Source of the DNA: Mycobacterium sp.
Lineage (GTDB): Bacteria > Actinomycetota > Actinomycetes > Mycobacteriales > Mycobacteriaceae
DNA length: 64,000 nt
NCBI GenBank assembly: GCA_049683935.1
Contig: JBAUJR010000071.1
Direction: 5' to 3' (one strand)
Shown: in pieces, positions 46,384 through 60,639 of the stretch
Numbering within the stretch: position 1 is the stretch's first letter
Layout of the letters: the number at the start of each line of letters is the position of its first letter
Position numbers and translations under genes: made by a program
Notes under the pieces: model-generated
Databases searched by the model: none
What the model was told of the DNA's origin: nothing
Seen by the model: the letters and a program-made list of their open reading frames with translations, nothing else

Positions 46384-46388
46384 CGGCC

Positions 46389-47045: not shown

Positions 47046-48284
47046 GTGGATTTCAGCCTGCCTGACCATCTTCCCGGGCTGCTGGCCGACATGGATGCGT
47101 TCATCGAGGCGGAGATCAAACCGCTCGAGCGCGAACACATCCAGTACTTCGACCAGCGCCGCGAGTATGCCCGCACCGACTGGGACAACGACGGCATCCC
47201 GCGACGGGAGTGGGAGGATCTGCTCGGCGAGATGCGAAGACGAGCCGACAAGGGGGGTTGGCTGCGCTACGGGCTGCCGTCACGGTTCGGCGGCCGCGAC
47301 GGCAGCAACATCGACATGGCGGTCATCCGAGAACATCTGGCGCATAAGGGACTCGGTCTGCACAACGACCTGCAGGACGAGTCCTCGATCGTGGGCAACT
47401 TCCCCCAGGTGATCATGATGGACCGGTTCGGCACCGAGACCCAGAAGAAGGAATGGACCGAAGCCCTGATCACCGGGGAACGGTCGATGGCGTTCGGGCT
47501 CACCGAGCCCAATCACGGATCGGACGCCACCTGGCTGGAGACCCGCGCTGTTCAGGACGGCGACGAATGGGTCATCAACGGCGCCAAACGATTCAACACC
47601 GGCGTGCACCGGGCGACCCATGACCTGGTGTTCGCACGAACCTCGGGCGACCAGGGTCAGGCCAGAGGCATCAGCGCGTTCCTGGTGCCGACCGATACCC
47701 CGGGGTTCTCCGTCCCGTACTACTGGTGGACGTTCAACATGCCCACCGATCACGGCGAGGTTCTGCTGCAAGATGTGCGGGTGCCTGCCGACGCGGCGCT
47801 CGGCGAGGTGGACCGCGGCCTCGAGGTCGGGCAGACGTTTCTGCACGAGAACAGGATTCGACAGGCAGCCAGCAGTCTCGGCGCGGCCCAGTACTGCATC
47901 GACCGCGCCGTCGGGTACGCGAAGGAGCGCTCGGTGTTCGGCAAGCCGCTGGCGGTCAATCAGGCGGTGCAGTGGCCGTTAGTGGAGCTTCAGACCGAGG
48001 CGCAGATGGTTCGGCTGCTGGTGCGCTATGCGGCGTCCGAGCTCGACCGCAATCACCACATGGAGGTCTCCGACAAGGTGTCGATGGCCAACTACCGCGC
48101 CAACCGCCTGGTGTGTGAGGCCGCCGACCGTGCGATGCAGGTGTTCGGCGGCGTGGGCTACAGCAGACACGAACCGTTCGAGCACATCTACCGGCACCAC
48201 CGCCGCTACCGGATCACCGAGGGCGCCGAGGAGATCCAGATCCGCCGGGTCGCGCAGCGGCTCTTCGGGTTCGGCCACAAGTGA
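47046..48284 (+). CDS. Acyl-CoA dehydrogenase
   Basis: 412 aa. GTG is preceded by AAAGGAGAA. It contains FGLTEPNHGSD and a C-terminal ITEGAEEIQIRRVAQRLFG. Confidence 0.85.
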   Translation: MDFSLPDHLPGLLADMDAFIEAEIKPLEREHIQYFDQRREYARTDWDNDGIPRREWEDLLGEMRRRADKGGWLRYGLPSRFGGRDGSNIDMAVIREHLAHKGLGLHNDLQDESSIVGNFPQVIMMDRFGTETQKKEWTEALITGERSMAFGLTEPNHGSDATWLETRAVQDGDEWVINGAKRFNTGVHRATHDLVFARTSGDQGQARGISAFLVPTDTPGFSVPYYWWTFNMPTDHGEVLLQDVRVPADAALGEVDRGLEVGQTFLHENRIRQAASSLGAAQYCIDRAVGYAKERSVFGKPLAVNQAVQWPLVELQTEAQMVRLLVRYAASELDRNHHMEVSDKVSMANYRANRLVCEAADRAMQVFGGVGYSRHEPFEHIYRHHRRYRITEGAEEIQIRRVAQRLFGFGHK

Positions 48285-49249
48285 CCGACACACTGGCCAG
48301 GGCGCTGGAACGGGTGCTCCACCCGATTGTGGGAGAAGTGAGCGTCGAGAACCTGCAGCCGCTCACCGGCGGAGCGAGCAGGATCACCTGGGCGTTCGAC
48401 GCGGTGGCGGACACACGTCGCGCCCTGATCCTTCGCACCGGTGCCGACGACGACCTGCACGCCGGTATGGAGTTGGAGGCGTCGGTGCAGCGGCGTGCTG
48501 CTGCCGCGGGTGCACCGGTCCCCCATGTGCTGACCGCCGACAACTCCCCGGCCGCCCTGGGCAACCCGTATCTGATCTGTGACGCCGTCGCCGGCGAGAC
48601 GATCGCACCCCGGATCCTCCGCAGGCTCGACGACGCGGGTCGGGCACGACTGCTCGAGCAGTGCGCCGCAGCGCTCGCGGCCATCCACCATGCCGATCCG
48701 GACGGCATCGGGTTGACATCGTCGGATGAGCTGGCCGGTTGGCGCGCCCGCCTCGATGAGATGGGTGACACCACAGCCCCTTTCGAATGGGCGTTTCGCC
48801 GCTTGGCGGAGCAGCGCCCCGCAGCGTCGCCGATGCGGCTGGTGCACGGCGACTTCCGGATGGGGAACCTGATCGTCGACGACTCCGGCCTCGCGGCGGT
48901 CCTCGACTGGGAGCTGACACACCTCGGCGAGGTCTACGAGGACTTGGCATGGTTCTGCATCCGGGCGTGGCGGTTCGGCGCGCCGCAGACACTCGGTGCG
49001 GGCGGGATCGGCAGCGTCGAGGCATTCCTGCGCGCGTACGAAGTCGCTTCGGGGACGGCCGTCGACCGCGGCGCCTTCCGCTGGTGGTTGACGGTGGCGA
49101 CGTTGCGGTGGGGGGTCATCTGCCGGCACCAGGCCGAGCGGCACCTCTCCGGCGAGGCCCGGTCGGTGGAACTCGCGGCGATCGGTCGCCGGGTCAGCGA
49201 AACCGAATGGGACGTACTCGATCTGATGTCGGGAGGCGGACCGAGATGA
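48281..49249 (+). CDS. APH-family phosphotransferase (kinase-like fold)
   Basis: 322 aa with a 4-nt overlap with the ACAD gene. It contains LVHGDFRMGNLIV and VLDWELTHLGEVYEDLAW. Confidence 0.85.
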   Translation: MTDTLARALERVLHPIVGEVSVENLQPLTGGASRITWAFDAVADTRRALILRTGADDDLHAGMELEASVQRRAAAAGAPVPHVLTADNSPAALGNPYLICDAVAGETIAPRILRRLDDAGRARLLEQCAAALAAIHHADPDGIGLTSSDELAGWRARLDEMGDTTAPFEWAFRRLAEQRPAASPMRLVHGDFRMGNLIVDDSGLAAVLDWELTHLGEVYEDLAWFCIRAWRFGAPQTLGAGGIGSVEAFLRAYEVASGTAVDRGAFRWWLTVATLRWGVICRHQAERHLSGEARSVELAAIGRRVSETEWDVLDLMSGGGPR

Positions 49250-49584
49250 CAGCCTTGAACGGGCGCCCCACGGCGGCCGAACTCGTAGCGGCCGTCGCCG
49301 AGTTCCTCGACAACGACGTCCGCGCGGCGTGTAGCGGTCAGGTGGGGTTCCACGCCCGCGTCGCCGCCAACGTCCTGCGTATCGTCGAACGCGAACTGCT
49401 CGACGACACGGCCGACGCGGCGGTTGCCGCGCTGAACGATCTCGGATACGCCGACGAGGCCGAACTGTCCCACGCGATCCGCAGTGGCCTGCTGGATGAT
49501 CGCCCTGAGGACGTGATGGCGTGTTTGACGGCTCTGGTCCGTCACCGGTTGTCGATCGCCCACCCCGGCTACGAAGAAGTTTGA
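49246..49584 (+). CDS. Small conserved protein (DUF6285-like, from memory)
   Basis: ATG 49246 overlaps the APH stop (ATGA). The 112-aa product reads MTALNGRPTAAELVAAVAEFLDNDV... The track ORF 48787..49584 is an off-target extension. Confidence 0.6.
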   Translation: MTALNGRPTAAELVAAVAEFLDNDVRAACSGQVGFHARVAANVLRIVERELLDDTADAAVAALNDLGYADEAELSHAIRSGLLDDRPEDVMACLTALVRHRLSIAHPGYEEV

Positions 49585-49602
49585 CGAACGCGCACCGGTG
49601 AC

Positions 49603-49914
49603 TCAGTTCGACGAGGCCGCAGACCCTGGTCCGTAGGGCACCGCACCGGCAAGAATCCGCGCATCAACATCCGGGGTCAATCGCTGTGGAAGCGCACCGG
49701 CGCGAGTGCATACCCGCAGTACCTCTTCGGCGGATCCGGCAGTGAAGAGTGCATACACCGCGTCGTCGGCCGACACGGAGAGCACCAGAAGCAGCCGGGC
49801 TGAGAACTCCGTGGTCGCGACCGCAGCGCTGCAGGACTCCAGCAACGCGACGAACTTGGTGATCGCGGGGTCGGTGAATGCGGACCGGTGCCATTCGGCG
49901 AGGAAGTATCCCAT
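49603..49914 (-). CDS. Small hypothetical protein (possibly DUF4242-like), translationally coupled to the upstream LAL regulator
   Basis: 103 aa. The ATG at 49914 lies 1 nt after the regulator stop (49916-49918). The pattern MGYFLAEWHR...VYALFTAGSAEEVLRVCTRAGALPQRL loosely recalls DUF4242. Confidence 0.5.
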   Translation of the reverse strand: MGYFLAEWHRSAFTDPAITKFVALLESCSAAVATTEFSARLLLVLSVSADDAVYALFTAGSAEEVLRVCTRAGALPQRLTPDVDARILAGAVPYGPGSAASSN

Positions 49915-49915
49915 C

Positions 49916-52855
49916 TCAGCCCGACACCTCGCGCAGGGTGTCGATCTGTCGCCCCAGTTCGGCGCGACCGCGGATGCCGAGCTTGCGATAGATGCGACCG
50001 AGGTTGTGTTCCACCGTTTTCGGGCTGATGTACATCGCAGCTGCGACGTCCCTGTTCGTCATTCCGGACGCGACCAACTCGGCGACGCGTAACTCGGACG
50101 GGGTGAGGATGTGCTGCGACGGGCCGGCGGCGGCGCGCTCGAGTTCGGCGCGGGCCCGGTCAGCCCACAGTGATGCCCCGAGACCTTCGAACGTTGCGAG
50201 AGCGTCGGCGAGAGTGACACGGGCGGCGTGCTTCTGCCGCAGGCGGCGCTGCAACTGGCCGACGACCAATTGGGTGCGGGCGCGCTCGAAGGGCATCGGC
50301 AGCGCGTCGTGTGCCTCGAGCGACCGGGCGGCGGCTTCTTCGGCGGCATGGATCTCACCGCGCGCCGCCAGCAGCATGGTTCGGCACCGGGCACCGATCG
50401 CGATCATCCACGGGCGGTTCAGGCGGGCACCGTTGTCCTCGAGTGCGTCGACCCACGGCTCGAACTCGTCGGTGCGGCCCAGTGCGAACGCCGCCTCCAT
50501 CAGGTCCGGCAGGAACCACCACGACGCGATCTCGGTGTGTCCGTCGACGCCGCCGCGGGCCAGCAGCGGATGGAGTACTTCGACCGCCGCAGCGTGCTGT
50601 CCCAGCGAGAGCTCGAGAAAGCCCAGCACCATTCGTGGTCCGTCGAGCAGCGTCGTCTCCCCAAGTTGATCCGAGTGCTCCAAGACCAGTCCGATCTCGG
50701 CCCGGGCGTCGGCCTCGCGACCCTCCAGCGCGGCGATCAGCCCCCGCGGTACCGCCGCCAGGGCGCGGGCTGGAATGCTGTCCAGTTGCTCGGCACCGAG
50801 CAGCATGTCGTCGGTGACCTGCGTGGCGTCTCGGTGCCGCCCCAGCCAGATGTCGACCATGGCCGCGTGGGATTGGACCCAGAGCATGTCGACATCGGAA
50901 CCCCTGGCAGCGCAGTATCTCTGGGCGTCGATGAATTGCCCACGGGCCTCCGTCAACCTGCCGGTCCACGACGAGACGAGCGCCTTGACGATGTGCGCGC
51001 TGAAAGGTGCCGCGGTGTGCACGCCGGTGTCGTGGCGCTGCTCCAGATCGATCGCCCGCTGTAGGGACACCTCGTCCACACCCTGCCCGTTGGCACAACG
51101 GAACAGCACCTGCGCAGCCAGCGCCTGGCTGATCAACATCCGGTCGGCGAACTCGTCTGCACGTGTCCGGGCCAGTTGCGCATGGCGAGCGGCACCTTCG
51201 GCGTCCCCGGCGGTCGACAACGTGATCGCCAAGGTGAGGTGGGTTCGCACCGTCAGCGCCGGATCGTCGGCGGCATCGACGACGGCGGCGTGGAGTTGTT
51301 CGATGGCGCGGCGGAAGTCGCCGCGGACGGAGAGGGCGCCGCCCAGCAACACCCGGGCGCGGGCGCGTAGCGGTCCTTCGGGGAGTTCGGATGCGGCGGG
51401 CTCCAACAGTGCGAGCGCGCGATCCACGTCACCGGAGAGGAGGTGGCTGTGTGCGGCGTTCACCCGACGTGTCGCGGTGCCGCCTCCGAGGCCGATGGCG
51501 AGTTCGAGCAACTCCGCGACAACTGCCGGCGAGGCCTTCGCACGCGCGGCATCTGCCGCTGAGTCAAGTGCAAGAAGGGTTTCGGGGTCACCTGTCGTCG
51601 CCGCCAGAGCCATGTGCCGGGCCTGACGTTCGAGCACCGGCTCGATACCGGCGACGGTCCGGTGGATGCGTCGTCGGTCCGCCGGGCGTGCCTGGCTGTA
51701 GACGACATGGGCGAGCAGGGGGTGGGAGAAGTGTAGCTGGCCGCCGTCGATGACGACGATGCCACGATTCTCCGGGACCTCGAGCAGCGTCACGATCCGC
51801 CGGACCGGCCGCCGCAGGATCGCCGCGAGCAGGTCCAGCGTCGGGTGGGTGACGCAGGCCGCGGCAAGCAGCACCTCGTGGACTTCCTCGTCGAGCTGGC
51901 CCACACGCAGACCCATGACGTCGGTCAGGGTCGACGGGAGCGCGGATCCCCAGGCCGAGTCCGCGGTGTCCAGTGCGTGGGCGAGTTCCAATGCGTAGTA
52001 GGGGTTTCCACCCGAGATCTCAGCGATTCGCGCCATCGTGGAGCGGGGGAACGACCGGCCGGTCCGACTCGACATGAGGCGGTGGAGCCGACCGAGCGGC
52101 ATCGGCGCGATCGTCAGGCGCGTCACGCTCTCGGACCGTCCCAGATCCAGCCAGGACGCCGCACCGGAACGGTCCGGAACAGTCCGCTCGGTCACGACGA
52201 TCCCGATCCGACCTCGCACCCGCCGCAGCGCATACGCCAACACGTCACGCGTCGCCGCATCGATCCACTGCACATCGTCAACCGCCAGCAGCACCGGCGT
52301 GCGCACCGCCAGTTCCTCGATGATCGACATGAAAGCCGCGGCGACCGAACGACGGTCGATATCGGCACTCGGGCCACCCGCGCGGATCAAGACCTGCTCG
52401 AGCGCCTCCCGCCGCGCGGCGGGCAGACAGTCGAGCACCTCGGGTTCGACATCACCGAGCAGATCGTCGAGCCCGACAAAGTCCAACAGCGACTCCGCTT
52501 CGCTCGCCCGCGTGGACAGCACACGGAAGCCGGCCTGCCGCGCCTCGTCATGCGTGGCCAGCCACAGTGTCGTCTTGCCGATCCCCGGCTCACCGTCGAT
52601 GAGCAGCGCCGACGGTTGGCGCGCTGCCGCGTCGATAAATTCGGTGACGCTTGCTGCTTCGTCCTTCGCATTCACGGGCCGGCCTACCGGTGGAGGCGAT
52701 CCGGGACCGGCGAAGTACGGGCGGAACTGCAGCCCGAGACAAGCGCCGGTTCGAGGGTTGCTCGGGAAGGATGAGGGCAGGTCACGTCGGTACCTCCATT
52801 GTGGAAGGGCGCGCAGGTCGGGCACGCTGGGAATCTCGATCACCGGCACCGTCAT
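49916..52855 (-). CDS. Large ATP-binding LuxR-family regulator (LAL / MalT-like: P-loop NTPase, helical repeats, C-terminal LuxR HTH)
   Basis: It has Walker A GEPGIGKTT, Walker B LLAVDDVQW and the C-terminal HTH LTPSELRVAELVASGMTNRDVAAAMYISPKTVEHNLGRIYRKLG. The first 60 codons are Pro/Arg-rich. GTG 52675 (VNAKDEAAS...) is the more likely start. Confidence 0.85.
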   Translation of the reverse strand: MTVPVIEIPSVPDLRALPQWRYRRDLPSSFPSNPRTGACLGLQFRPYFAGPGSPPPVGRPVNAKDEAASVTEFIDAAARQPSALLIDGEPGIGKTTLWLATHDEARQAGFRVLSTRASEAESLLDFVGLDDLLGDVEPEVLDCLPAARREALEQVLIRAGGPSADIDRRSVAAAFMSIIEELAVRTPVLLAVDDVQWIDAATRDVLAYALRRVRGRIGIVVTERTVPDRSGAASWLDLGRSESVTRLTIAPMPLGRLHRLMSSRTGRSFPRSTMARIAEISGGNPYYALELAHALDTADSAWGSALPSTLTDVMGLRVGQLDEEVHEVLLAAACVTHPTLDLLAAILRRPVRRIVTLLEVPENRGIVVIDGGQLHFSHPLLAHVVYSQARPADRRRIHRTVAGIEPVLERQARHMALAATTGDPETLLALDSAADAARAKASPAVVAELLELAIGLGGGTATRRVNAAHSHLLSGDVDRALALLEPAASELPEGPLRARARVLLGGALSVRGDFRRAIEQLHAAVVDAADDPALTVRTHLTLAITLSTAGDAEGAARHAQLARTRADEFADRMLISQALAAQVLFRCANGQGVDEVSLQRAIDLEQRHDTGVHTAAPFSAHIVKALVSSWTGRLTEARGQFIDAQRYCAARGSDVDMLWVQSHAAMVDIWLGRHRDATQVTDDMLLGAEQLDSIPARALAAVPRGLIAALEGREADARAEIGLVLEHSDQLGETTLLDGPRMVLGFLELSLGQHAAAVEVLHPLLARGGVDGHTEIASWWFLPDLMEAAFALGRTDEFEPWVDALEDNGARLNRPWMIAIGARCRTMLLAARGEIHAAEEAAARSLEAHDALPMPFERARTQLVVGQLQRRLRQKHAARVTLADALATFEGLGASLWADRARAELERAAAGPSQHILTPSELRVAELVASGMTNRDVAAAMYISPKTVEHNLGRIYRKLGIRGRAELGRQIDTLREVSG

Positions 52856-52978
52856 CGGATCGATCCGTCGTTAAGCGAAGTTCGGGCCATCTCGACGACG
52901 TGCACTGGTGCCTCCTAGGTACTGCCCAAACGCGTTGGGTGACGAGGAGGAGCGTATGAACGCGACGACTGTGGCGTC

Positions 52979-53024
52979 ACGCGTAGTCGACTACGTGTTT
53001 ATGCTCGTAGCGCTACTTAGTAGC
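52979..53024. promoter_or_regulatory. Cluster of GTAG/CTAC palindromes between the LAL regulator and the GMC oxidoreductase (candidate lux-box-like operators)
   Basis: ACGCGTAGTC|GACTACGTGT at 52979-52998 is a 20-bp inverted repeat with one mismatch per arm. Its core CGTAGTCGACTACG is perfect. GTAGCGCTAC at 53007-53016 is perfect. G-CTACT-T-AGTAG-C at 53012-53024 is perfect around a central T. Confidence 0.45.
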
Positions 53025-53085
53025 AAGCAACTCGCGACCGCGTGAGTGCTCGCTGATCTGCATGTAGTGCGGGCTTCGCCCGGCT

Positions 53086-54810
53086 ATGGTGACGCACATG
53101 GTGGGGTGGCAGGTAGGACCTTCGAAGTGCCTGATCAAGAAGGGCGTCGACTATCTGGTGATCGGCAGCGGCTTCGGCGGGTCGGTGGCGGCGGCTACTC
53201 TGGCCGAAAACGTGGACGATAAGACTTCAGTCTGTCTGTTTGAACGTGGCAAAGCGTATCCGCCGGGGTCTTTTCCCAGAACATGGAACGGCCTCAACGC
53301 CAGCTTCTGGGATCCGCCCTACCGGAACGGGATGTTCCAGATGTGGTCGTTCACCGGAATTGACGCGATCACAGCGAGCGGGCTCGGTGGCGGCTCGCTC
53401 ATCTACGCCAATGTCATGTTGGAGAAGCCCGAGGCTTGGTTCACTCAACCGAACCCCGACGGATCAGGCACCGAATGCTGGTCATTCCGACACGGGGAAC
53501 TCGCAAAGTACTACCAACAGGTGAGGGATTTCCTCAAGGTGGAGGAGCTACCGGACGAGTTGAGAACATGCTCACCCAAAACCACGCGGTTTCTCGAAGC
53601 ACTGCCGGATGCCCAGCTGGCTCCGTTGGCGGTGCGCTTTTCCGCCACAGAAGGCAACCCGCAGTTCGGCGTCCCGCTCCCGGCGGAAGATTATGCAAAC
53701 ATCCACGGAGACGTGCAGCGCACCACGTGCCAGATGTGCGGTGAGTGCGATTTCGGGTGCAACGTCGGCGCCAAGAACACCATGGACCATACCTACCTGT
53801 CGAAGGCCGCCGACGACGGCGCGGAGATCTGCGTCCAGACCGAGGTGCGCGAGATCCATAGCTGCAATGACGGAAAGGGCCACCTGTTCCACGTCGGCTA
53901 TATCGTCCACCGAGACGAGCCCGTCGCACAGGACCAGCCCGATCCTCCGCTGCAATGGATTAGGGCCAAACGTGTTGTCCTGGCTGCAGGAACCCTCAAC
54001 ACCACGCTCCTCATGTTGAGCAACAGGGGGAACCTCAACATTTCATGCGACGAACCGATCGGCAAGCGATTCTGCGGCAATGGCGACCTTCTCGGGTTCG
54101 CCCTACCTAAATTCTGTTCCCGGGGTCTGACTCCCAGCGGGGGTCCGGTCATCACCACCTACCATCAGAACGAGGAAGGTGGCCAACGAATTCTGTTACA
54201 AGACGGTGGGGCACCAAATTTGAGAAGTTGGAAACTGACTTGGAAAGAGGCCCGCGATCTAATCGTCGCGCTGGGCCGAGAGTGGGTCGAGCGCATTCGG
54301 AGGCCTCCTCGGGGCATTACAACCGCTACGCAGGAGCGCTCCGGTTGGCCGCGATGGCACTGGCCGCTGCCGATTCTGGGCATGGGCGCCGATACGCCTA
54401 GTGGCCAATTGACATTGGACAAGTCAAACTCCACCTTGGAGTGTGACTGGACGATCGACAAATCCCAATCTCACTTCAATGAAGTGCGGCAGCGCATGGA
54501 GTCACTCTCCCAGCGACTCACAACGCGCTTCCTGCTCAAGCCCCGATGGATCCTGAATCGCGTCATCACCGTTCACCCGCTGGGTGGCTGCCCCGCCGAC
54601 ACGACGGCCGACAAGGGTGTCGTCGACAGCTACGGCCGAGTCCACTCGGTGCCCGGACTGTGGATCGCCGACGGCTCGGTGATGCCGGGACCGATCGGCG
54701 CCAACCCCTCGCTGACCATTGCCGCCTTCGCACGCCGTGCTGCCTGCGAGCTCCTCAAAGAAGGCCTCGGAACGCCCTCCACCCCAGAGCCGTTCATTCG
54801 TTCTGAATGA
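53086..54810 (+). CDS. GMC-family FAD oxidoreductase, ChoD / cholesterol-oxidase-like
   Basis: 574 aa. It contains the FAD motif DYLVIGSGFGGSVAA, the CQMCGECDFGCNVGAKNT motif typical of ChoD-like enzymes, and the C-terminal HPLGGC...VDSYGRVHSVPGLWIADGSVMPGPIGANPSLTI. No signal peptide is visible. The alternative ATG 53098 would be leaderless behind TATGGT (53085-53090). Confidence 0.85.
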   Translation: MVTHMVGWQVGPSKCLIKKGVDYLVIGSGFGGSVAAATLAENVDDKTSVCLFERGKAYPPGSFPRTWNGLNASFWDPPYRNGMFQMWSFTGIDAITASGLGGGSLIYANVMLEKPEAWFTQPNPDGSGTECWSFRHGELAKYYQQVRDFLKVEELPDELRTCSPKTTRFLEALPDAQLAPLAVRFSATEGNPQFGVPLPAEDYANIHGDVQRTTCQMCGECDFGCNVGAKNTMDHTYLSKAADDGAEICVQTEVREIHSCNDGKGHLFHVGYIVHRDEPVAQDQPDPPLQWIRAKRVVLAAGTLNTTLLMLSNRGNLNISCDEPIGKRFCGNGDLLGFALPKFCSRGLTPSGGPVITTYHQNEEGGQRILLQDGGAPNLRSWKLTWKEARDLIVALGREWVERIRRPPRGITTATQERSGWPRWHWPLPILGMGADTPSGQLTLDKSNSTLECDWTIDKSQSHFNEVRQRMESLSQRLTTRFLLKPRWILNRVITVHPLGGCPADTTADKGVVDSYGRVHSVPGLWIADGSVMPGPIGANPSLTIAAFARRAACELLKEGLGTPSTPEPFIRSE

Positions 54811-55420
54811 GTTCTTTGCGCACATAGATCCGCCACAGGCCCCTTACGAAGAAGGCGACGTAGGCACCGACGGCGCGCCAGCGAGTGAACAATCCTCCGT
54901 CGCCGTAGCCACGCATCCTCGTCATCTGACGGACGAACTCCCACAGGGTGATCGAGATGACGCCCGCTGCACGCCGCGGCCGCTGCTTGTCATCGTCCGG
55001 TGTGACGTCGACGAGCGTCACACGAAGCCGCGTGGTGTCACCCCAGACCCGCCAGATGCGCCCTCCCCTCGGTTCGAGCACCTTGCGTGCCGTCATTTTG
55101 AATTGACGGTCATCGTTGATCAGGTCCGCGGTGTAGAGCATCTGTTGCACTGTTGTGCCGTTTGGCCCCTGGCCCGACTCAAACAATACGAATTTGCCGT
55201 TTTCGGTGACGAATCGTCCACCAAGCACGGGGATCACGACATCAGCACGCATGTCCGCTTCGCGCGAACTGCCTGCGATGAAGGCGGCGACGTTCGGGAT
55301 ATCAATGGTCAGATGCATCGCGGTGGCAAATCCGTCGACACGCTCATAACCGTCCACCGGGTCCAGCGCACGCAGTGCGATGCGCCCCGTCATCGTCTCC
55401 CGGAAACGTAACCCCGTCAC
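54794..55420 (-). CDS. Orphan 208-aa protein, no recognisable family
   Basis: The GTG start overlaps the stop of the upstream 4-TM gene (GTGA). The 3' end overlaps the convergent GMC gene by 17 bp. The sequence has ordinary globular composition (MTGLRFRETMTGRIALRALDPVDGYERVDGF...). Confidence 0.6.
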   Translation of the reverse strand: MTGLRFRETMTGRIALRALDPVDGYERVDGFATAMHLTIDIPNVAAFIAGSSREADMRADVVIPVLGGRFVTENGKFVLFESGQGPNGTTVQQMLYTADLINDDRQFKMTARKVLEPRGGRIWRVWGDTTRLRVTLVDVTPDDDKQRPRRAAGVISITLWEFVRQMTRMRGYGDGGLFTRWRAVGAYVAFFVRGLWRIYVRKELIQNE

Positions 55421-55767
55421 CGATTACTCCGAGCCTGCGCGGCCAATACTGCGAACCAGACCACCGTTGCCCCCCATGCAACCCCCCAGGCGCACACACT
55501 GACCAACGGCACCTCAGTACTTCCACACACCGCAATCCAACCCACCACTGCGGCCACCAGTGCAGCGACCGCCGGCCACCGCAAACCCGAAAACACTTCG
55601 GTGATCGCCAGGACCCCGGCGAGCACGGCCGCCACTACCGCCAGATAGCCAACATTCGGAGCCACGACGCCCGGTCCGGAACCGAGATGTATTGCCAGGC
55701 TGGGAAACAGCAGGGCGGACAGAACAAAGAGCAGACCCATATGGCTGACCAGCACAAGTTTTGTCAT
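55417..55767 (-). CDS. Small 4-TM membrane protein
   Basis: ATG 55767 lies 2 nt after the hydrolase stop (55770-55772). The 116-aa product has four hydrophobic helices. The track ORF start at 55866 lies inside the hydrolase gene. Confidence 0.6.
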   Translation of the reverse strand: MTKLVLVSHMGLLFVLSALLFPSLAIHLGSGPGVVAPNVGYLAVVAAVLAGVLAITEVFSGLRWPAVAALVAAVVGWIAVCGSTEVPLVSVCAWGVAWGATVVWFAVLAAQARSNR

Positions 55768-55769
55768 CG

Positions 55770-56882
55770 TCAGCCACTCAGCCAATCGATCATTCGGGGG
55801 AAGATGTTGACGGCTGAATACTCCCCCAGGAAGGTGTCGAGGTGGCCATATCCCTCGGGCTCCCAAAGATCATGAGGTCCAGTGGTCTTGGCCTTGAAGA
55901 CCCGGAAGGATCGCTCCATCCCTTGCGGATGGAATGTCTTGTTGTCGGCCCCGCAGACAAACAGGAACCGCGCGTCGGTCTTCGGCTCGTGGGCAAAATT
56001 CACGGGGATATCGTCGTATCCGCGCACCGCGACCAACTGCTTTGCCTTGAGGCATCTGCGAGTCTGCCGGAACAAGCTCACCGGTACATGCGCGAACTCC
56101 CCCTTGATCCAGTCGTGGGTCACGTCGTCGAGGTTCTGATGGCTCCACAGAGTCGGAAAGCCCACGCCGTAGGTGAAACTCGAGTGCTTACACACCGGGT
56201 TATTGCATTCGTGATGGAATGTCCGAACGAGGAAATCCAACAGTTTGGCGCTGAAACTCGATGCGTACAGCCCGAATTGCGGATTGAACCAGCTCGTCAT
56301 CCTGCCCAGTGTCGCCAGCGCAATAGGCAGCTTGACCCCGGCGGACCACCGAACCTTCGGGTGCATCGCGGTCGAGTTGGCCACCACCGTCGTGACTTCG
56401 CGCAGCAGGCCGGACGCGATGGACATCATGAAGGCGTGGGAGCCCTGACAGTGCACAACAGCTTTGACTGCGTTGTTCTTCTTGGCGGACTCTGACGTTG
56501 TGAGCCTGAGGATCTCGGCTACCGCTGCCGGGAAATCATGCACCGCGGCGTCGTCGAACGTGTACTGCGTCGGTTCGAGATCGATGCTGGCACGCCAGTT
56601 GAGAAGCCAGACGTCGAAACCCGCCGCTGACAGCATCGCCGGAAGCGTGATCGTACTCGGAGGGCAGAAGAGGTTCGCTCGGGTGCCGGACCCGTGGACG
56701 AACATCACCGCGCCCATGTCACGCTCAGCTTCCGGGTCCGGACCGAGATGCTGGAAGTTGAGTTGAAATCCGTCCTTCGCCTTGAACCAGACGGTCTCCA
56801 TCTTCGGCAGTGCGGCACCGTCCGGGTTCCGCAGCGAGATGTCGGACTCGGTCAGCAACGGCGATATCGAGAACATCCCCAT
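55770..56882 (-). CDS. Alpha/beta-fold protein with Cys at the nucleophile elbow (PhaC / lipase-like)
   Basis: 370 aa. It has the oxyanion-region FVHGSG. The elbow KAVVHCQGSHA aligns with xGHSxGG and places Cys at the nucleophile position. Asp and His candidates are FVCGADNKTF and GYGHLD. The ATG abuts the LAL regulator stop (TGAATG). Confidence 0.7.
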   Translation of the reverse strand: MGMFSISPLLTESDISLRNPDGAALPKMETVWFKAKDGFQLNFQHLGPDPEAERDMGAVMFVHGSGTRANLFCPPSTITLPAMLSAAGFDVWLLNWRASIDLEPTQYTFDDAAVHDFPAAVAEILRLTTSESAKKNNAVKAVVHCQGSHAFMMSIASGLLREVTTVVANSTAMHPKVRWSAGVKLPIALATLGRMTSWFNPQFGLYASSFSAKLLDFLVRTFHHECNNPVCKHSSFTYGVGFPTLWSHQNLDDVTHDWIKGEFAHVPVSLFRQTRRCLKAKQLVAVRGYDDIPVNFAHEPKTDARFLFVCGADNKTFHPQGMERSFRVFKAKTTGPHDLWEPEGYGHLDTFLGEYSAVNIFPRMIDWLSG

Positions 56883-59543
56883 TCACAAAACCCCTTCACG
56901 TGTATCAACAGCGCCCACGGTTGTCGCCATCGCCGCCCGATCGGGGACGCCGAGTTTCATACATGCCTTGTACACATGGCCTTCCACGGTTCGCACCGAG
57001 ACACACAGTCGGTCCGCGATGGCCTTGTTGGTCATGCCCTGCGACACCATCACCGCCACCTCGCGCTCACGTCCGGTCAACGGCATCGGGTTGAGGACAC
57101 GTTCCAGTGCCGGCGTCGTCGGGTTGCCGCACCGTTGGGACAGTTGACTCGCGCGCGACTTCGCGGCGATCTCCCCTGCGCGGTCACCACTTGCCTGGTG
57201 GGCGGCCGCGGCCTGCGCGGCGGCGTCGGCAGCGACGGCGATCATCCCCGCCGCCTCGAGGTCCACCGACACGTCATTCAAGCCGGCACCGTCGCCACTG
57301 GCCAGCGCTGCGGTGTGCGCGACACACAGATATCCTGCAGCACAATCGATCTTGGCGTTCACCCGACGGGCTGCCGCCAGTCCCTGAACGTCGCCCAATC
57401 GCGCGCCGTCATGCAGTACCCGCAGCAGGATCGCGTCCTGACCCGACTGCTCGGCGGCATGAGCGGCATCCCGGACGGCACCGACCGCACCGCGGAGGTC
57501 GCGGGCCGCAGCCAGTGTCCACGCCCGAGCCAGCGCGAGGTCGGGCGCATACACCTGCGAGCGCAGGCCGTGGCTGGCCTCGGCGCGCTGCAGCGTGCTG
57601 GCGGCATCGGCCGCGCGACCCTGCTGACCGAGGGCCTGCGCGAGTCCAATCAGCGCCAGCGGGCCCCAGCTGTAACCGGTCGAGGTGAGCGCTGCCGCCG
57701 CCTGGCGTAGCAGGATCACCGCGTCGTTGTAGGAACCCGACGCCAAAAGTGTGTGACCCAAAAGCACTTCACCAATCGCGCGCCCCGGCTGCTGGAACTC
57801 CGAGAAACTCAGATAATGCCGTGCCAGGCGTTCGGCAGCGGGCACATCGCCGGCCATGATGAGCGCCAGCGCTTGGCCCAGCCCCATCGTGAACCGCAGC
57901 AACCCGGGGTGCGTCGCGTTCAGACCACGCTGTGCGATCGGTTCGACGTCGGCAAACCGGCCCAGACGCGCGCTGGACAGTGTCGCCGCCGCAGAAGCCC
58001 AGGCCACTGCGAGATCTTGGGCATCGTCGGCGTCGAGCACACCGTCGGCGACGCGGACAGCCTGTACCAGATCGCCGGAGTTGAACGAAAACGTCGCTGC
58101 CAGGGCATCAATCGTGTGCAGCGCGGCGCGCTCGGTGATTCGCGCCCGCATCTGCGACAGATAGACCACGGCCTCAGCGGATTCGGAGAGCATCCAGAAT
58201 CGGTTGGCGGCCTTGGGCAAAGTCCAGGCCATCAAGTCCCATTGCGACAGCGTGTCCGGGTCGACCGGGGACAGCACGTCGTCGGCGTCGCGGCCACGGC
58301 CCTGCCAGGACAGTGCGTGGGCGAGCGGCAGTCGAGCCGACAGCGCGCCGGTCTGGTCCAGCGCGCCACGCGCCAACCGCTCCCCGAGTGCGAGGTCACC
58401 CAACCGCATCGCCTCCCACGCCAGACCGGTCAGTTCGTCGGCCCGCGGCGGATCGTCGGTGTCGATTGCCAGTCCGGCCAGCCGCAGCCGTGCGCTGATG
58501 CTTTCCGGTGCGCGGGCCGAGAGTTGTTGCACCAGTTGGGTTCGGAGCCGGCGAGCCGCGAGGCGGCCCAACCCCGATCGGACGCGTTCAGTGTAGAGCG
58601 GGTGAAAAGGATGGACGACCAGGGTTCCGGCTTGATCACTGACCGCGACGACCCCGGTCGTCTCGGCCTGATCAACCGCGTCGAGGCCGGTGAGCTCCGC
58701 TAGGTCGGACACCGCCAATGGTTCCTCGATGGCGAGGAACTCCAGGACTGTGCGCACCGGCGACGGCAGCGTGACCAGGTGCTGGTCGATCAGGGTGGAG
58801 AGCTGCGGGGTCAGTGGCATCTCGCCGCGAAGCTGCCACACTCCCTCCACCTGTCGCAGCGAGCCGGTGTTGAGCGCGGACTCCACGAGGTGCCGCAGGT
58901 AGAGCGGATTACCCTGGCTGACATCGAACACCCTTGTGGTGCTGACATCCTCGACCACGCCGCCCAGCGTCTGCTCCAGGAAGAAACCGGTCTCGTCGTA
59001 GTCGAACGGGAAGATGTCATGGCGCGCGAGGATGTCGTCCTTCCAGAGCGCGGTGACAGCGTCGGGGACCGACTCGCCCTCGCGAACAGTCAGCAGCATG
59101 TGCGCTTCGCCGTTGACGGCAAGCTGATGCACCAGCGTCGCCGACAGCGTGTCGAGTTGATGTGCATCGTCGACCACGAGGATGAGGCCACGCGCGGCCC
59201 CGGCCCGTAGGGCTTCCCGGGCGGCCCGGAGCACGGTGGCCGGTTCGTCGGCGCCGGCCACCGCGATCAGATGGCTGAAGGCTCCGAACGGAATGCCTTT
59301 CGCCGATGCGGTCGCCGAAATCCACTGCGCCGCGAATTGGGGATGCTTCCTGGCGAATTCCTTGAACAGCTTGCGCGCCATCGACGTCTTTCCGACGCCC
59401 GGAGCCCCGACGAGCACAGCCGACAGACTCGCGCCACCGATCGCCGATTCCACCTGCTGACGCACCAGGCCCCGACCCACGGTCATACCGCGCACCCCCC
59501 TCGCCCGAATGCTAACTGCCGGATCGTCCGGGGGCGGGCTCAA
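56883..59543 (-). CDS. Large ATP-binding LuxR-family regulator (LAL)
   Basis: It has Walker A GAPGVGKTS, Walker B ILVVDDAHQ and the C-terminal HTH LTGREREVAVMVSQGMTNKAIADRLCVSVRTVEGHVYKACMKLG. The track start is TTG 59543. ATG 59486 (MTVGRGLVRQQ...), preceded by GAGGGGGG, is a plausible alternative. Confidence 0.85.
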   Translation of the reverse strand: MSPPPDDPAVSIRARGVRGMTVGRGLVRQQVESAIGGASLSAVLVGAPGVGKTSMARKLFKEFARKHPQFAAQWISATASAKGIPFGAFSHLIAVAGADEPATVLRAAREALRAGAARGLILVVDDAHQLDTLSATLVHQLAVNGEAHMLLTVREGESVPDAVTALWKDDILARHDIFPFDYDETGFFLEQTLGGVVEDVSTTRVFDVSQGNPLYLRHLVESALNTGSLRQVEGVWQLRGEMPLTPQLSTLIDQHLVTLPSPVRTVLEFLAIEEPLAVSDLAELTGLDAVDQAETTGVVAVSDQAGTLVVHPFHPLYTERVRSGLGRLAARRLRTQLVQQLSARAPESISARLRLAGLAIDTDDPPRADELTGLAWEAMRLGDLALGERLARGALDQTGALSARLPLAHALSWQGRGRDADDVLSPVDPDTLSQWDLMAWTLPKAANRFWMLSESAEAVVYLSQMRARITERAALHTIDALAATFSFNSGDLVQAVRVADGVLDADDAQDLAVAWASAAATLSSARLGRFADVEPIAQRGLNATHPGLLRFTMGLGQALALIMAGDVPAAERLARHYLSFSEFQQPGRAIGEVLLGHTLLASGSYNDAVILLRQAAAALTSTGYSWGPLALIGLAQALGQQGRAADAASTLQRAEASHGLRSQVYAPDLALARAWTLAAARDLRGAVGAVRDAAHAAEQSGQDAILLRVLHDGARLGDVQGLAAARRVNAKIDCAAGYLCVAHTAALASGDGAGLNDVSVDLEAAGMIAVAADAAAQAAAAHQASGDRAGEIAAKSRASQLSQRCGNPTTPALERVLNPMPLTGREREVAVMVSQGMTNKAIADRLCVSVRTVEGHVYKACMKLGVPDRAAMATTVGAVDTREGVL

Positions 59544-59565
59544 ACAGCGAAAACGCCGTCTGATT

Positions 59566-60195
59566 TCAGATTCGGCGAATCCGCGCCAGCCACGCGGGTT
59601 CGTCCACCCGGGTTCCGACAGCCAGCTTCAGCGCCTCGGCGTGTACGTCGGTGACGAGCCCGCGGTAGGTCGTCGTGGTCAACTCTTCGATGTCCCAGCC
59701 GGTGCCGAACGCCTCACGGATGGTCTCCTCGCTGACCTCGGGTCCGAATCCGCGGCCGGCGTCGGACAAGGCGAGCACATGCACAACCGCTCCGGGTCGA
59801 GTGGCGGTGTGCAGGCTGCGCACGTACTTCGCACGGTCACCGTCGTCGAAGACATGGAAGAGCGCGCTGTCGACGATCGTGTCGTAGCCGGGCACATCGT
59901 GCAGGTCCAGCGCATCGGCAACCTCGAACCGCGCGTCGACGCTGCGCTCGGCGGCATTGCGGCGGGCCTGCTCGACGGCTGTCGGGGCACCGTCGACACC
60001 GAGCACGTCGTATCCCGATCCTGCCAACAGGATCGTGTGCTCGCCGGTGCCGCAGCCGACATCGAGCACCCGACCGGTGATGAGTCCGCGGCGTTCCAGC
60101 TCGACGATGGTCGGCTGCGGCTCGCCGATCACCCAGGGCGGGATCTGGTTCTTGTAGAAGTCGTCGAATCGGGAGATCGTTGGCGTTTGGTCCAT
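59566..60195 (-). CDS. Class I SAM-dependent methyltransferase
   Basis: 209 aa. Motif I is VLDVGCGTGEHTILLA, and post-I is VLGVDGAP. Confidence 0.85.
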   Translation of the reverse strand: MDQTPTISRFDDFYKNQIPPWVIGEPQPTIVELERRGLITGRVLDVGCGTGEHTILLAGSGYDVLGVDGAPTAVEQARRNAAERSVDARFEVADALDLHDVPGYDTIVDSALFHVFDDGDRAKYVRSLHTATRPGAVVHVLALSDAGRGFGPEVSEETIREAFGTGWDIEELTTTTYRGLVTDVHAEALKLAVGTRVDEPAWLARIRRI

Positions 60196-60237
60196 GAAGC
60201 CCAGTGTTCAACCTGAACTGAAGTTGAGGTCAACAGG

Positions 60238-60639
60238 ATGTCCGAAACCGGAACGCGGACTGTCACCGACGTGGCCGAGCGACTGTTCGACGCCATCGAA
60301 CGCAGCGATATCACCACCGTGGAGCAGCTGTTCAGCCCCGCGGTAGCGGTGTGGAAGAGCGGTGACGACAGACCCAGCGGCCGGGAGCGATCGGTTCGCA
60401 TCATCGGGTGGTTCGTCAACACCACCGTGGGCCGGCGGTACGAGATTCTCGACCGCCAGGTGTTCAACGGCGGCTTCGTCCAGCAGCACATCCTGCACGC
60501 CGATGGCCGCAACGGTGCGTCGATCGCGATGCGGGTCTGCATCGTGATCAAGATCGGCATCGACGGCCTGATCACCCATATCGACGAGTACTTCGACCCG
60601 GCGGCGATCGCTCCCCTGCTCTCCGACGACCGAACATGA
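60238..60639 (+). CDS. SnoaL/NTF2-like protein
   Basis: 133 aa. It reads VAERLFDAIERSDITTVEQLFSPAVAVW...GLITHIDEYFD. Confidence 0.65.
   Translation: MSETGTRTVTDVAERLFDAIERSDITTVEQLFSPAVAVWKSGDDRPSGRERSVRIIGWFVNTTVGRRYEILDRQVFNGGFVQQHILHADGRNGASIAMRVCIVIKIGIDGLITHIDEYFDPAAIAPLLSDDRT

Follow-up and report, generated by a model that had tools for sequence, protein, structure and literature searches.

The region at 52856–56882 of the window (the whole 64-kb stretch of mycobacterial DNA analysed here) encodes an oxidase, a new barrel protein and a Cys-lipase-like enzyme, which constitute a conserved module without any description so far. The genes are functionally linked, since fusions of the GMC oxidoreductase, the barrel and the Cys-hydrolase exist, and the three proteins clearly form one functional unit, acting together. 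Consistent with the original prediction that the ensemble matches no described system, our literature search found no paper describing any member of the module. The best explanation, to which we assign a probability of about 0.4, is a conserved enzyme module in which the trio acts together on a hydrophobic ester, which is de- or trans-acylated before the freed alcohol is oxidised.

Gene organization and regulators

The module is flanked by two regulators (Table 1), both of which possess the predicted LAL architecture by Pfam domains: LAL1 matches AAA_16 (1e-15), TPR_19 and GerE (1e-12), and LAL2 matches AAA_16 (3e-10), TPR and GerE (2e-13). On the minus strand, LAL2 and the hydrolase gene are joined by GTGAATG, in which the TGA of LAL2 abuts the ATG of the hydrolase, the hydrolase and 4-TM genes by TGA-CG-ATG, and the 4-TM and 208-aa genes by a GTGA overlap, in which the GTG start of the latter lies over the stop of the former. 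The 208-aa and GMC genes converge, with stops at 54794 and 54810, respectively, so that they share 17 bp. All of these junctions and the overlap were read directly in the sequence as first claimed. LAL2 would be a dedicated regulator co-transcribed with the hydrolase operon, and LAL1 a second regulator, divergent from the oxidase gene. The hydrolase gene lies directly downstream of LAL2 in M. gilvum, M. thermoresistibile, Rhodococcus, L007, L008, L010–L012 and L018, LAL1 adjoins the GMC gene in L001 and L007–L011 with 46–64% identity, and the M. brumae module is likewise adjoined by an LAL.

Table 1. Features of the module and its flanking regulators
Feature	Position	Strand	Remarks
103-aa small protein	49603..49914	-	Coupled translationally to LAL1 (TGA-G-ATG)
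LAL1, large ATP-binding regulator, LuxR family	49916..52855	-	AAA_16 + TPR + GerE HTH; divergent from GMC gene
LAL1/GMC divergent intergenic region, 230 bp	52856..53085		Holds 20-bp palindrome
GMC-family FAD oxidoreductase, 574 aa, ChoD-like	53086..54810	+	GMC_oxred_N, GMC_oxred_C
208-aa protein, new domain family	54794..55420	-	Predicted beta-barrel + long C-terminal helix; GTG start
116-aa 4-TM protein	55417..55767	-	Four hydrophobic segments (hydropathy)
370-aa alpha/beta hydrolase, acid-lipase-like fold	55770..56882	-	Cys nucleophile, V-H-C145-Q-G-S
LAL2, LuxR family, N-terminal ATPase domain	56883..59543	-	First gene of operon; start codon uncertain

An inverted-repeat search located the palindrome (ACGCGTAGTC/GACTACGTGT) at 52979–52998; no such palindrome was reported by this search in the LAL1/GMC intergenic region of M. 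gilvum. Scanning of 52700–59800 found no sigma-70-like promoter, and an Rfam search of 49000–60500 gave no match. The 103-aa gene accompanies LAL1 in the nuo-locus variant, and its product is 62% identical to the 95-aa M. gilvum protein whose gene follows LAL1. It matched no family in Pfam or NCBIfam, and shows no convincing resemblance to the small genes that follow GMC in M. thermoresistibile and Rhodococcus.

Fusions and co-occurrence of the trio

The 208-aa protein had no match in Pfam, NCBIfam or PADLOC, and a PDB sequence search returned nothing at E <= 10. A profile search recovered ~1020 representative relatives of its domain, free or fused, and the family keeps the N-terminus MTGLRFRETMTG from residue 1 onward, with the signature F-x-E-x-M-x-G at residues 6–12. 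Among the best 150 of these representatives, the domain is free in 91, whereas the remainder comprise patatin–barrel (22, the commonest fused form), barrel + hydrolase (15), GMC + barrel (13) and GMC–barrel–hydrolase (5) architectures. The fusion P0214 (1140 aa) consists of a GMC domain, the 208-aa domain (residues 578–773) and a Cys-hydrolase in this order. The GMC protein aligns over its full length with the N-terminal part of P0214 (29% identity, E 6e-44), and the hydrolase with its hydrolase part (26% identity, E 6e-24), which carries GHCLGG. A GMC–barrel–hydrolase fusion of ~1150 aa is core to Ralstonia megaplasmids and present in 127; other fusions occur in Pseudomonadota and Verrucomicrobiota, and a patatin–barrel fusion in Thermomicrobiales. 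The automatic annotations of the Ralstonia fusion conflict, naming one gene choline dehydrogenase, cholesterol oxidase or alpha/beta hydrolase.

Separate or fused, the GMC, barrel and hydrolase genes co-occur in 17/17 distinct loci examined, the trio being counted wherever the sequence is long enough (that of L018 breaks off within the barrel gene). The actinobacterial loci are those of the eight nuo-locus mycobacteria, L012, M. thermoresistibile, M. brumae, Rhodococcus and Streptomyces, and the others come from Acidisoma, Bradyrhizobium, Ralstonia and two metagenome contigs. In M. brumae, a GMC protein with 45% identity to ours heads a GMC–barrel–hydrolase operon. The check proposed with the original prediction of a real ensemble, namely fused versions and co-occurrence across phyla, thus came out positive.

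Extended proteobacterial clusters add a patatin, a membrane metallophosphoesterase, an ADC-family protein and DUF4345. The metallophosphoesterase, present in the Rhodococcus, Streptomyces, Ralstonia, Acidisoma, L016 and Bradyrhizobium clusters, the frequent patatin fusion and the label 'choline dehydrogenase' on the Ralstonia copies would suit glycerophospholipid turnover, in which a phospholipid would lose its acyl chains to patatin and the Cys-hydrolase, the metallophosphoesterase would split the glycerophosphodiester and GMC would oxidise the released choline- or glycerol-type head-group alcohol. However, the mycobacterial module has neither patatin nor metallophosphoesterase, the BetA models match only the last ~60 residues of GMC (29–36 bits against cut-offs of 605–732), and automatic labels for the same gene disagree, so that we regard this reading as distinctly improbable. 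Across loci, the genes outside the module do not point consistently to any one pathway; the L015 copy, for instance, lies amid sugar and inositol-type genes.

Members of the trio and candidate chemistry

The hydrolase (AF2 model with pLDDT 90) has C145 as its nucleophile, together with His347/Asp349. As predicted for a Cys-type enzyme, all 120 free homologues and all 14 alignable fused ones have Cys145; His347, Asp349 and Asp116 are invariant as well. After strand 7, where the acid canonically sits, no acid is conserved; the position holds an invariant Asn314. In addition, the cap contains a putative Cys2His2 metal site (C226, C231, H248 and H256), a set that is all-or-none across the fused homologues. 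Foldseek ranks the gastric lipases of dog and human highest, along with lysosomal acid lipase (E ~1e-14, TM 0.65–0.71), and the profile match to gastric lipase (E 1.6e-10) aligns GHSQG with VHCQGS and YNHLDF with YGHLDV. The hydrolase thus shares the fold class of the gastric and lysosomal acid lipases, but its nucleophile is Cys instead of Ser.

Both GMC_oxred_N (1e-11) and GMC_oxred_C (8e-16) exceed their Pfam gathering cut-offs in the GMC protein. In the PDB, the closest sequence is that of cholesterol oxidase 1coy (E 4e-18); the HPLGG (His) and NP(S/F)xTI (NP Asn) segments align, although the match comprises only three local pieces. The earlier designation as a ChoD-type oxidase holds in that cholesterol oxidases are the protein's closest relatives in the GMC superfamily, but the label is loose, and a canonical cholesterol oxidase was rejected as its identity, the score against the equivalog NF058674 being 158 bits for a cut-off of 850. 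The class I enzymes covered by PMC6694107 are TAT-exported, whereas no TAT or signal peptide is apparent here. These relationships also bear on steryl-ester catabolism, whereby the hydrolase would be a steryl/cholesteryl esterase, GMC a true 3-beta-hydroxysteroid (cholesterol) oxidase and the barrel a sterol carrier. Such a pathway would agree with lysosomal acid lipase being a cholesteryl ester hydrolase, with the 'cholesterol oxidase' auto-annotation of many homologues and with hosts that are soil mycobacteria and a plant pathogen. We nevertheless consider it unlikely, given the low equivalog score, the fragmentary 1coy match, the missing export signal and the Cys nucleophile; moreover, the steroid-degradation genes kst, hsa and mce4 were not seen beside any examined locus, and the patatin, metallophosphoesterase and ADC-family protein of the extended clusters would be superfluous to a sterol pathway.

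A Cys nucleophile is equally suited to acyl transfer or polymerization as to hydrolysis. The G/V-H-C-x-G-G/S elbow resembles the PhaC box G-x-C-x-G-G, the hydrolase profile matches PHA synthase 9knj (E 2.5e-4), RhlA, PhaZ and PhaC are among the Foldseek matches, and an ADC-family gene lies directly 3' of the hydrolase gene in Acidisoma, Bradyrhizobium, L016 and Streptomyces. The enzyme could accordingly be PhaC-, PhaZ- or RhlA-like, acting on 3-hydroxyacyl esters or thioesters and making or mobilising oligo- or polyesters, with GMC oxidising the 3-hydroxy to the 3-keto acid and the ADC-family protein, where present, decarboxylating the product. This acyl-transfer chemistry is conceivable but doubtful: neither PhaC_N nor PHB_depo was matched in Pfam, lipases rather than PhaC are the top fold matches, the acid position is replaced by Asn314, the mycobacterial module lacks an ADC gene, and acetoacetate decarboxylase activity is missing from many members of the ADC family.

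The AF2 model of the 208-aa protein (pLDDT 88) contains ~9 strands and a helix at 177–206. In a Foldseek search of the PDB, no match had an E below 0.04, and those returned were weak lipocalin/calycin-type barrels. As the barrel has no significant structural neighbour, this weak calycin-like resemblance is the sole hint of a possible lipid-binding role, and the conserved polar residues E8, K113, Y96 and usually H53 could serve catalysis instead of binding. The C-terminal helix retains an F/F/L/Y face even when internal to fusions, which argues against a simple membrane anchor.

Because patatin cleaves acyl groups from lipids and the hydrolase most closely resembles lipases in structure, we infer that the module performs lipid or ester chemistry. 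The sterol, hydroxy-lipid or polyester substrates suggested earlier are conjectural. In the preferred reading, the trio acts together, probably as a complex; we tentatively picture a membrane-associated system in which a hydrophobic ester is de- or trans-acylated and the alcohol so released is then oxidised. The barrel would bind or present the ester at the cytoplasmic membrane face or a lipid body, the Cys-hydrolase would remove or transfer the acyl group through a thioester acyl-enzyme, and the GMC alcohol oxidoreductase, predicted to be cytoplasmic and FAD-dependent, would turn the freed hydroxyl group into a ketone or aldehyde.

In the source lineage, the trio is joined by the small membrane protein, a reduced, distant relative of DUF1772/anthrone-oxygenase-like proteins. 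Its equivalents in M. gilvum, M. thermoresistibile, Rhodococcus and Acidisoma, encoded at the corresponding position, are 109–159 aa long and align with it, TE..SGL.W being invariant; the Acidisoma counterpart scores 22 bits against Anthrone_oxy, under the cut-off of 27.3. The four hydrophobic segments of the original prediction are confirmed, but the gene is an optional member of the ensemble, because the gene coordinates in L008–L011 are too tight to accommodate it and it is absent in M. brumae.

Base composition and conservation at the locus

The region has 60.6% GC compared with 66.4% in the remainder of the window and is the lowest among all same-length (~4-kb) windows across the 64 kb, ~5 SD under 13 non-overlapping windows (mean 0.665, sd 0.011). 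The mean G+C per 60-nt line is 36.4 inside and 39.8 outside (Mann-Whitney p = 2e-12), and seven earlier hand counts (32, 28, 35, 37 and 31 inside; 40 and 38 outside) were all exact. GC3 is also reduced (hydrolase 0.78, 4-TM 0.66, 208-aa 0.73, GMC 0.73; most other window genes ~0.80–0.90), so the predicted lower-GC module is borne out. The edges of the dip coincide with gene boundaries and include neither LAL gene; LAL1, with a GC of 0.687, lies outside it. Since GC1 of the module genes is low too (0.57–0.63), part of the dip stems from amino-acid composition, and the lower GC is partly this and partly a lineage-specific fall in GC3.

The horizontal acquisition proposed from this dip is only partly supported. 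The dip itself is real, but it is a lineage feature of the source lineage and its nearest relative L018, not proof of fresh insertion: eight mycobacterial genomes carry the module and both LAL genes at one locus, with the nuo operon on one side and APH/acyl-CoA dehydrogenase on the other, the orthologues of M. gilvum, M. hodleri, M. yunnanensis and M. thermoresistibile have GC3 near that of the host, and no tRNA, integrase or flanking repeats were found at the locus. The lower GC is unlikely to reflect a recent insertion here. A foreign island of unrelated genes acquired not long ago, with accidental order and a low GC marking the donor, might also be suggested by the synonymous divergence from the nearest relative (0.26–0.42 in the module vs 0.06–0.22 in the flanks), the sporadic distribution among mycobacteria, the different site in M. 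thermoresistibile, the integrase beside the L016 copy and the plasmid location in Rhodococcus, Arthrobacter and Streptomyces. Beyond the shared locus and gene order, however, module identities order the relatives as the flanks do, the LAL genes, conserved parts of the module, lie outside the dip, and the fusions prove functional linkage; the notion of unrelated genes is largely refuted, and we hold such an island to be very improbable. Furthermore, the module is under purifying selection, as dN/dS relative to L018 is 0.07 for LAL2 and 0.15 for both the hydrolase and the barrel.

The GMC–barrel–Cys-hydrolase trio and its fusions

The GMC oxidoreductase, the 208-aa barrel protein and the Cys-hydrolase of the module, together called the trio, very probably form a functional unit. 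Close homologues of the 208-aa protein are rare, with just 30 in 5.8 billion proteins, and those with a named source are all mycobacterial. A barrel profile searched against 1.84 billion representatives recovered 1020 relatives, and local HMMs assigned architectures to the best 150 of these. Within these 150 the barrel stands free in 91 proteins, is joined to a patatin domain in 22, to the Cys-hydrolase in 15 and to a GMC domain in 13, has over 150 aa of unassigned sequence added to it in 5, and lies in a single GMC–barrel–hydrolase chain in 5; the fused architectures were confirmed with Pfam. In the 1140-aa fusion P0214, all three domains can be aligned to the respective window proteins, and its Cys elbow reads GHCLGG. 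Pseudomonadota and Verrucomicrobiota are the sources of the fusions, with one patatin–barrel protein originating from Thermomicrobiales. One fusion is present in 127 of 127 matching Ralstonia megaplasmids; this core megaplasmid gene of the plant pathogen Ralstonia solanacearum carries three different annotations (choline dehydrogenase, cholesterol oxidase and alpha/beta hydrolase).

The trio also occurs as separate adjacent genes in M. gilvum, M. thermoresistibile, Rhodococcus and a three-gene metagenome locus, and in M. brumae the separate genes follow the order of the fusion, GMC–barrel–hydrolase. In Streptomyces, GMC and barrel share one polypeptide of 810 aa, encoded two genes upstream of the hydrolase. 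The links of the barrel domain span at least four phyla, which on the reading of the module as a novel system are Actinomycetota, Pseudomonadota, Verrucomicrobiota and Chloroflexota. A genome-collection scan with the barrel alignment returned six loci, in close mycobacterial relatives only, its peptide patterns being clade-specific. The original prediction had treated the genes as one ensemble, to be tested by fused versions and by co-occurrence across phyla; both exist, in P0214, in Ralstonia and in the separate-gene loci. It had also matched the ensemble to no described system, and our searches of the full-text literature likewise found no description of the trio or the module. As a combination, the conserved trio is new; the component superfamilies are known, the regulators are ordinary LALs, and accessory lipid-enzyme operons as such are familiar. 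A defence system was considered and rejected: PADLOC returned nothing for the four structural proteins and matched the regulators at the HTH or P-loop level only.

Features of the module and its surroundings in the window
Feature	Coordinates	Strand	Remarks
tmRNA gene	19416-19784	-	tag ADSNQRDFALAA
Acyl-CoA-type gene set	44273-49249	+	upstream of the module
LAL1, 979 aa	49916-52855	-	coupled 103-aa small protein
Palindrome, 20 bp	52979-52998		ACGCGTAGTC/GACTACGTGT; divergent LAL1–GMC intergenic region
GMC oxidoreductase	53086-54810	+	GMC_oxred_N 45.5 bits (cut-off 23), GMC_oxred_C 59.4 bits (cut-off 24.6), Pfam
Barrel protein, 208 aa	54794-55420	-	GTG start at 55420 overlapping the upstream stop (GTGA)
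4-TM protein, 116 aa	55417-55767	-	four hydrophobic segments
Cys-hydrolase, 370 aa	55770-56882	-	Abhydrolase_1 barely matched (Pfam)
LAL2, 886 aa	56883-59543	-	upstream of the hydrolase
SnoaL–methyltransferase pair	59566-60639		

Properties of the module proteins and their partners

The barrel domain family is new. The 208-aa protein has no sequence match in Pfam (2025 copy), NCBIfam or PADLOC, and none in the PDB at E <= 10. Its predicted structure (pLDDT 88) comprises about nine long antiparallel strands and a 30-residue C-terminal helix, and a Foldseek search against the PDB retrieved weak calycin-type barrels only (E >= 0.04, TM 0.2-0.3), none of them a true match. The calycin/lipocalin barrels (nitrobindin-like Rv2717c, AttH, nitrophorins and barrel Diels-Alderases) are its only, weak neighbours, from which it differs in its own signature, F-x-E-x-M-x-G, G-x-K and W..TTTL, and in the conservation of the C-terminal helix. 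The idea that the barrel is a diverged ADC-family domain was rejected, since hhalign against four ADC proteins of the clusters gave a probability of 0.05%. Counted from the GTG start, conservation covers the N-terminus MTGLRFRETMTG, and residues 1-9, MTGLRFRET, which contain most of F-x-E-x-M-x-G, are conserved in all 27 aligned homologues. The NCBI version P0001 (100% identity, 96% query coverage) has 199 aa, nine residues fewer than the GTG-start product. The conservation from GTG suggests that P0001 probably begins nine codons late, in which case it would miss these residues, and that GTG at 55420 is probably the true start.

The conserved polar residues of the barrel are Glu8, Lys113, Tyr96 and usually His53. 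The window protein carries Asn43 and Arg53, positions at which Asp (81%) and His (85%) prevail among the 150 representatives of the family; P0002, a barrel homologue 91% identical to it, has Arg53 too, and His is kept in most other mycobacterial homologues. It is rather unlikely that the barrel, instead of being a passive carrier, would itself supply a third catalytic activity (for example isomerase, hydratase or lyase through Glu8/Lys113/Tyr96/His53) within an undescribed multi-phylum system modifying lipids or esters. If it did, each fusion of ~1150 aa would work as an assembly line of three steps, on a class of substrates so far unrecognised in bacteria.

The Cys-hydrolase represents a new Cys-nucleophile branch of the acid-lipase fold bearing a putative metal site. 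Its family profile matches gastric and lysosomal acid lipases (E 1.6e-10), placing lipase GHSQG over VHCQGS and YNHLDF over YGHLDV. The predicted model (pLDDT 90) is an alpha/beta hydrolase with a cap, and its top Foldseek matches are 1HLG, 1K8Q and 6V7N (E 8e-15 to 9e-14, TM 0.65-0.71). The human and dog gastric lipases and the lysosomal acid lipase/cholesteryl ester hydrolase are thus its best match in fold and profile, alike in size, cap domain, aligned elbow and His-x-Asp. By comparison, the hydrolase is bacterial and cytoplasmic, its elbow V-H-C-Q-G-S lacks the Ser nucleophile of the lipase G-H-S-Q-G, and the canonical acid position is variable, with the adjacent Asn314 (after strand 7) invariant. 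All 134 alignable homologues, of which 120 are free and 14 fused, have Cys145, and His347, Asp349 and Asp116 are equally invariant. Abhydro_lipase (PF04083) did not match the window protein and matched only the homologue P0074, weakly. In the cap, which also distinguishes the protein from acid lipases, C226, C231, H248 and H256 are invariant in the 120 free homologues, and in the fused ones all four are present in 9 and all four missing in 4. This all-or-none pattern is the one expected of a metal site, and so suggests that the Cys2His2 set binds a metal, possibly a structural zinc. The elbow Cys and the conserved His are also shared with PhaC and other Cys-nucleophile alpha/beta hydrolases. 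Unlike PhaC, however, the hydrolase has no PhaC_N domain and is much less similar to it than to lipases: Pfam and NCBIfam gave no PhaC match, and the family profile matched PhaC 9knj only weakly (E 2.5e-4, core strands). Where PhaC has its box G-x-C-x-G-G, the window protein has the Cys but reads V-H-C-Q-G-S, and P0214 has G-H-C-L-G-G. No pha genes were seen nearby.

Both Pfam domains of the GMC protein exceed their gathering scores and assign it to the GMC superfamily, and its closest relatives in the PDB and NCBIfam are class I cholesterol oxidases (1coy, E 4e-18, in three local pieces). The FAD-binding GxGxxG lies in VIGSGFGGS (residues 24-32), aligned to the N-terminus of 1coy. In the catalytic segments, tvHPLGGc aligns with tyHPLGGv and igaNPsltiaafa with vgvNPfvtitala; we take the HPLGG His and the NP Asn to be His447 and Asn485 of cholesterol oxidase. 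Glu361 is the isomerisation base of class I cholesterol oxidase, and the surroundings of 1coy residue 361 fall outside every aligned stretch. The protein shares with the cholesterol oxidases (ChoA/ChoM, 1COY, 1B4V and the mycobacterial ChoD-like GMC group) the fold, both Pfam domains, GxGxxG, the HPLGG His and Asn-Pro, but differs from them in several respects. It scores 158 bits against the NCBIfam equivalog NF058674 (CholsOxChoxAB), below the curated cut-off of 850, and it has no apparent export signal: the N-terminus MVTHMVGWQVGPSKCLIKKGVDYLVIGSG leads directly to the FAD motif, and no twin-arginine or hydrophobic leader was seen. Barrel and Cys-hydrolase always accompany it, whether as partners or in a fusion, an association that to our knowledge does not occur in cholesterol oxidases. 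It also carries, at residues ~215-225, CQMCGECDFGC, a C-x2-C-x2-C-x3-C motif of ferredoxin-like spacing. In 1coy this stretch is free of cysteines, and in the Rhodococcus homologue it is CVHCGSCDVGCP. A TAT signal has been described for class I cholesterol oxidases (PMC6694107), and the enzyme treated in this ChoD paper is class I, TAT-exported and unrelated.

Steryl-ester catabolism, in which the two enzymes would act on a steryl ester, draws on the kinship of one with cholesterol oxidases and of the other with cholesteryl ester hydrolase; with the low equivalog score and the apparent lack of export on the other side, we consider it distinctly unlikely.

The core of the system is the trio, and the 4-TM protein, the patatin, the metallophosphoesterase and the ADC-family protein are accessories. 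The 4-TM protein can be aligned with proteins in the same position of other clusters. DUF1772/Anthrone_oxy (PF08592) did not match it, and its longest homologue, from Acidisoma and homologous by alignment, reaches 22.1 bits, just below the 27.3 cut-off. An extended cluster in Acidisoma, Bradyrhizobium and another contig reads hydrolase–ADC–DUF1772-like–(DUF4345)–patatin::barrel–metallophosphoesterase–GMC. The ADC gene of this cluster would be accounted for by 3-hydroxyacyl chemistry like that of PhaC, PhaZ or RhlA, forming a 3-keto acid; set beside the remoteness of the hydrolase from PhaC, such chemistry is unlikely. Patatin and metallophosphoesterase in turn suggest phospholipid turnover, a very unlikely reading of a system with both as accessories. 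In the Ralstonia megaplasmid locus L013, a 628-aa protein (8198-10084) adjoins the fusion and is followed by a metallophosphoesterase; its N-terminal region is hydrophobic and probably crosses the membrane several times, and it contains a RoxA-like cytochrome c domain as well as two CxxCH haem motifs. Such a neighbour may point to what accepts the electrons of the flavoenzyme in the Ralstonia lineage.

Proposed chemistry

We tentatively propose a deacylating and oxidising route, to which, as a whole, we give a probability of roughly 0.4. The proposal draws on the repeated fusion of the three proteins, the fold of an FAD alcohol oxidase, including the region of the catalytic His and Asn, the lipase fold with an invariant Cys-His, and the organisation as cytoplasmic proteins that have a single small membrane protein as partner and regulators of their own. 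The substrate would be a hydrophobic ester. The barrel, which is attached to each catalytic partner in different organisms, may bind or localise it; the hydrolase would form an acyl-thioester and then release or transfer the acyl group, and the oxidase would convert the exposed hydroxyl to a carbonyl.

About 1000 clusters at 50% identity contain a domain that is covered neither by the 2025 copy of Pfam nor by NCBIfam or the PDB and that fusion and gene order tie to three lipid-type enzymes. Once solved, the chemistry would explain what thousands of genes do that are at present annotated as 'cholesterol oxidase', 'choline dehydrogenase' or 'alpha/beta hydrolase' and establish a new Cys-nucleophile branch on the acid-lipase fold, and it might reveal an unknown mycobacterial or rhodococcal lipid pathway. 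The trio is a good lead for enzyme discovery, not a change of paradigm.

Regulators, base composition and history of the locus

Both flanking regulators have the common LAL architecture, with an AAA_16 P-loop, central TPR and C-terminal GerE HTH (Pfam). LAL2 heads an operon that is presumably under its own control, and it shows translational coupling with the hydrolase gene. The 103-aa small protein after LAL1 was rejected as a core component, being conserved in the nuo-locus variant only. The palindrome between LAL1 and GMC is a candidate LuxR-type operator; it was rejected as a conserved one, with no counterpart reported in the LAL1–GMC intergenic region of M. gilvum. No Rfam element matched within 49-60.5 kb, no sigma-70-like promoters were found around the module, and terminator-like sites there are no commoner than expected from shuffling. 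In L002 (M. gilvum GCA_052695285.1, 10586-13356), LAL1 is split into ORFs of 825 and 98 aa, and in L005 (Rhodococcus, Logan assembly, 3320-5920) the LAL gene is split into 322 and 535 aa; sister assemblies of both have it intact, and the splits are either regulator inactivation or assembly error.

The original prediction described a lower-GC region with coupled genes, and renewed analysis upheld this throughout. GC of 52856-56882 is 60.6% against 66.4% in the remainder (~66% for the whole window, which derives from a Mycobacterium sp. metagenome-assembled genome, MAG), the minimum among 4-kb stretches of the 64 kb, ~5 SD under 13 non-overlapping windows and, by 60-nt lines inside and outside, different at p = 2e-12. 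A recount of the seven 60-nt lines counted by hand gave identical values. The junctions TGAATG, TGA-CG-ATG, GTGA and, between LAL1 and its 103-aa partner, TGA-G-ATG were all read in the sequence, and the 17-bp convergent overlap was found. The dip is confined to the four structural genes, whose ends are its limits; LAL1 and LAL2 have 68-69% GC. GC3 is 0.78 in the hydrolase, 0.66 in the 4-TM protein, 0.73 in the 208-aa protein and 0.73 in GMC, compared with 0.80-0.90 in most genes; GC1 of the four is likewise low, so protein composition explains part of the dip.

The horizontal acquisition that this composition had suggested stands only in part. In favour, base composition is atypical, as in a genomic island, and the module is clearly accessory and mobile over longer time: it is sporadic among mycobacteria, occupies a different locus in M. 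thermoresistibile, lies beside an integrase in L016, and is found on plasmids of Rhodococcus, Arthrobacter and Streptomyces. Against it, a tblastn comparison of the window genes with all the module-carrying loci of the comparison set places the module (LAL2 to LAL1 and the small protein) between a nuo operon with a response-regulator-like gene and APH/acyl-CoA dehydrogenase in eight genomes: the window, its nearest relative L018, Mycolicibacterium sp. BiH015, M. gilvum, M. hodleri, M. yunnanensis and two MAGs. A related locus lacking the module, as a genomic island would show, was not seen among these module carriers, which hold it at nuo/APH in L001, L007-L011 and L018. Nor do the neighbours include a tRNA, an integrase or flanking direct or att-like repeats, and the only tmRNA is 30 kb away. 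Identity is lower in the module than in the flanks, yet relatives keep the same rank order. Again in favour, dS against L018 is higher in the module (0.26-0.42) than in the flanks (0.06-0.22).

Low GC3 is shared with L018, whereas orthologues in more distant relatives have GC3 near that of the flanks. The low GC is therefore a recent, lineage-specific feature and is no evidence of insertion at the nuo/APH site; its source may be either weak codon bias, the genes being fast-evolving, or the exchange of the allele for one of lower GC. The locus is thus a cautionary case of a clear GC dip without a fresh insertion. The dN/dS values against L018 (hydrolase 0.15, barrel 0.15, 4-TM 0.46, LAL2 0.07) show that the module genes are under selection, not in decay. 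Its atypical composition notwithstanding, an accidental island of unrelated genes is extremely improbable beside this selection and the recurrent fusions.

The tmRNA gene coincides with a GC minimum, the kilobase 19001-20000 (60.6%), which is the second lowest in the window. Only the SnoaL–methyltransferase pair (13647-14709 in L001) switches sides: the window, L018 and BiH015 have it next to nuo, M. gilvum and L008 next to APH, and just one of its members was detected in L009-L011. The switch amounts to a rearrangement of the surroundings, the module itself staying in place. The gene set upstream of LAL1 (family III CoA-transferase, HMGL-like lyase, TetR/EthR-like regulator, acyl-CoA dehydrogenase and APH-family kinase) looks acyl-CoA catabolic. 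In five relatives APH has not switched sides relative to the module, and in M. gilvum it is followed by an acyl-CoA dehydrogenase.
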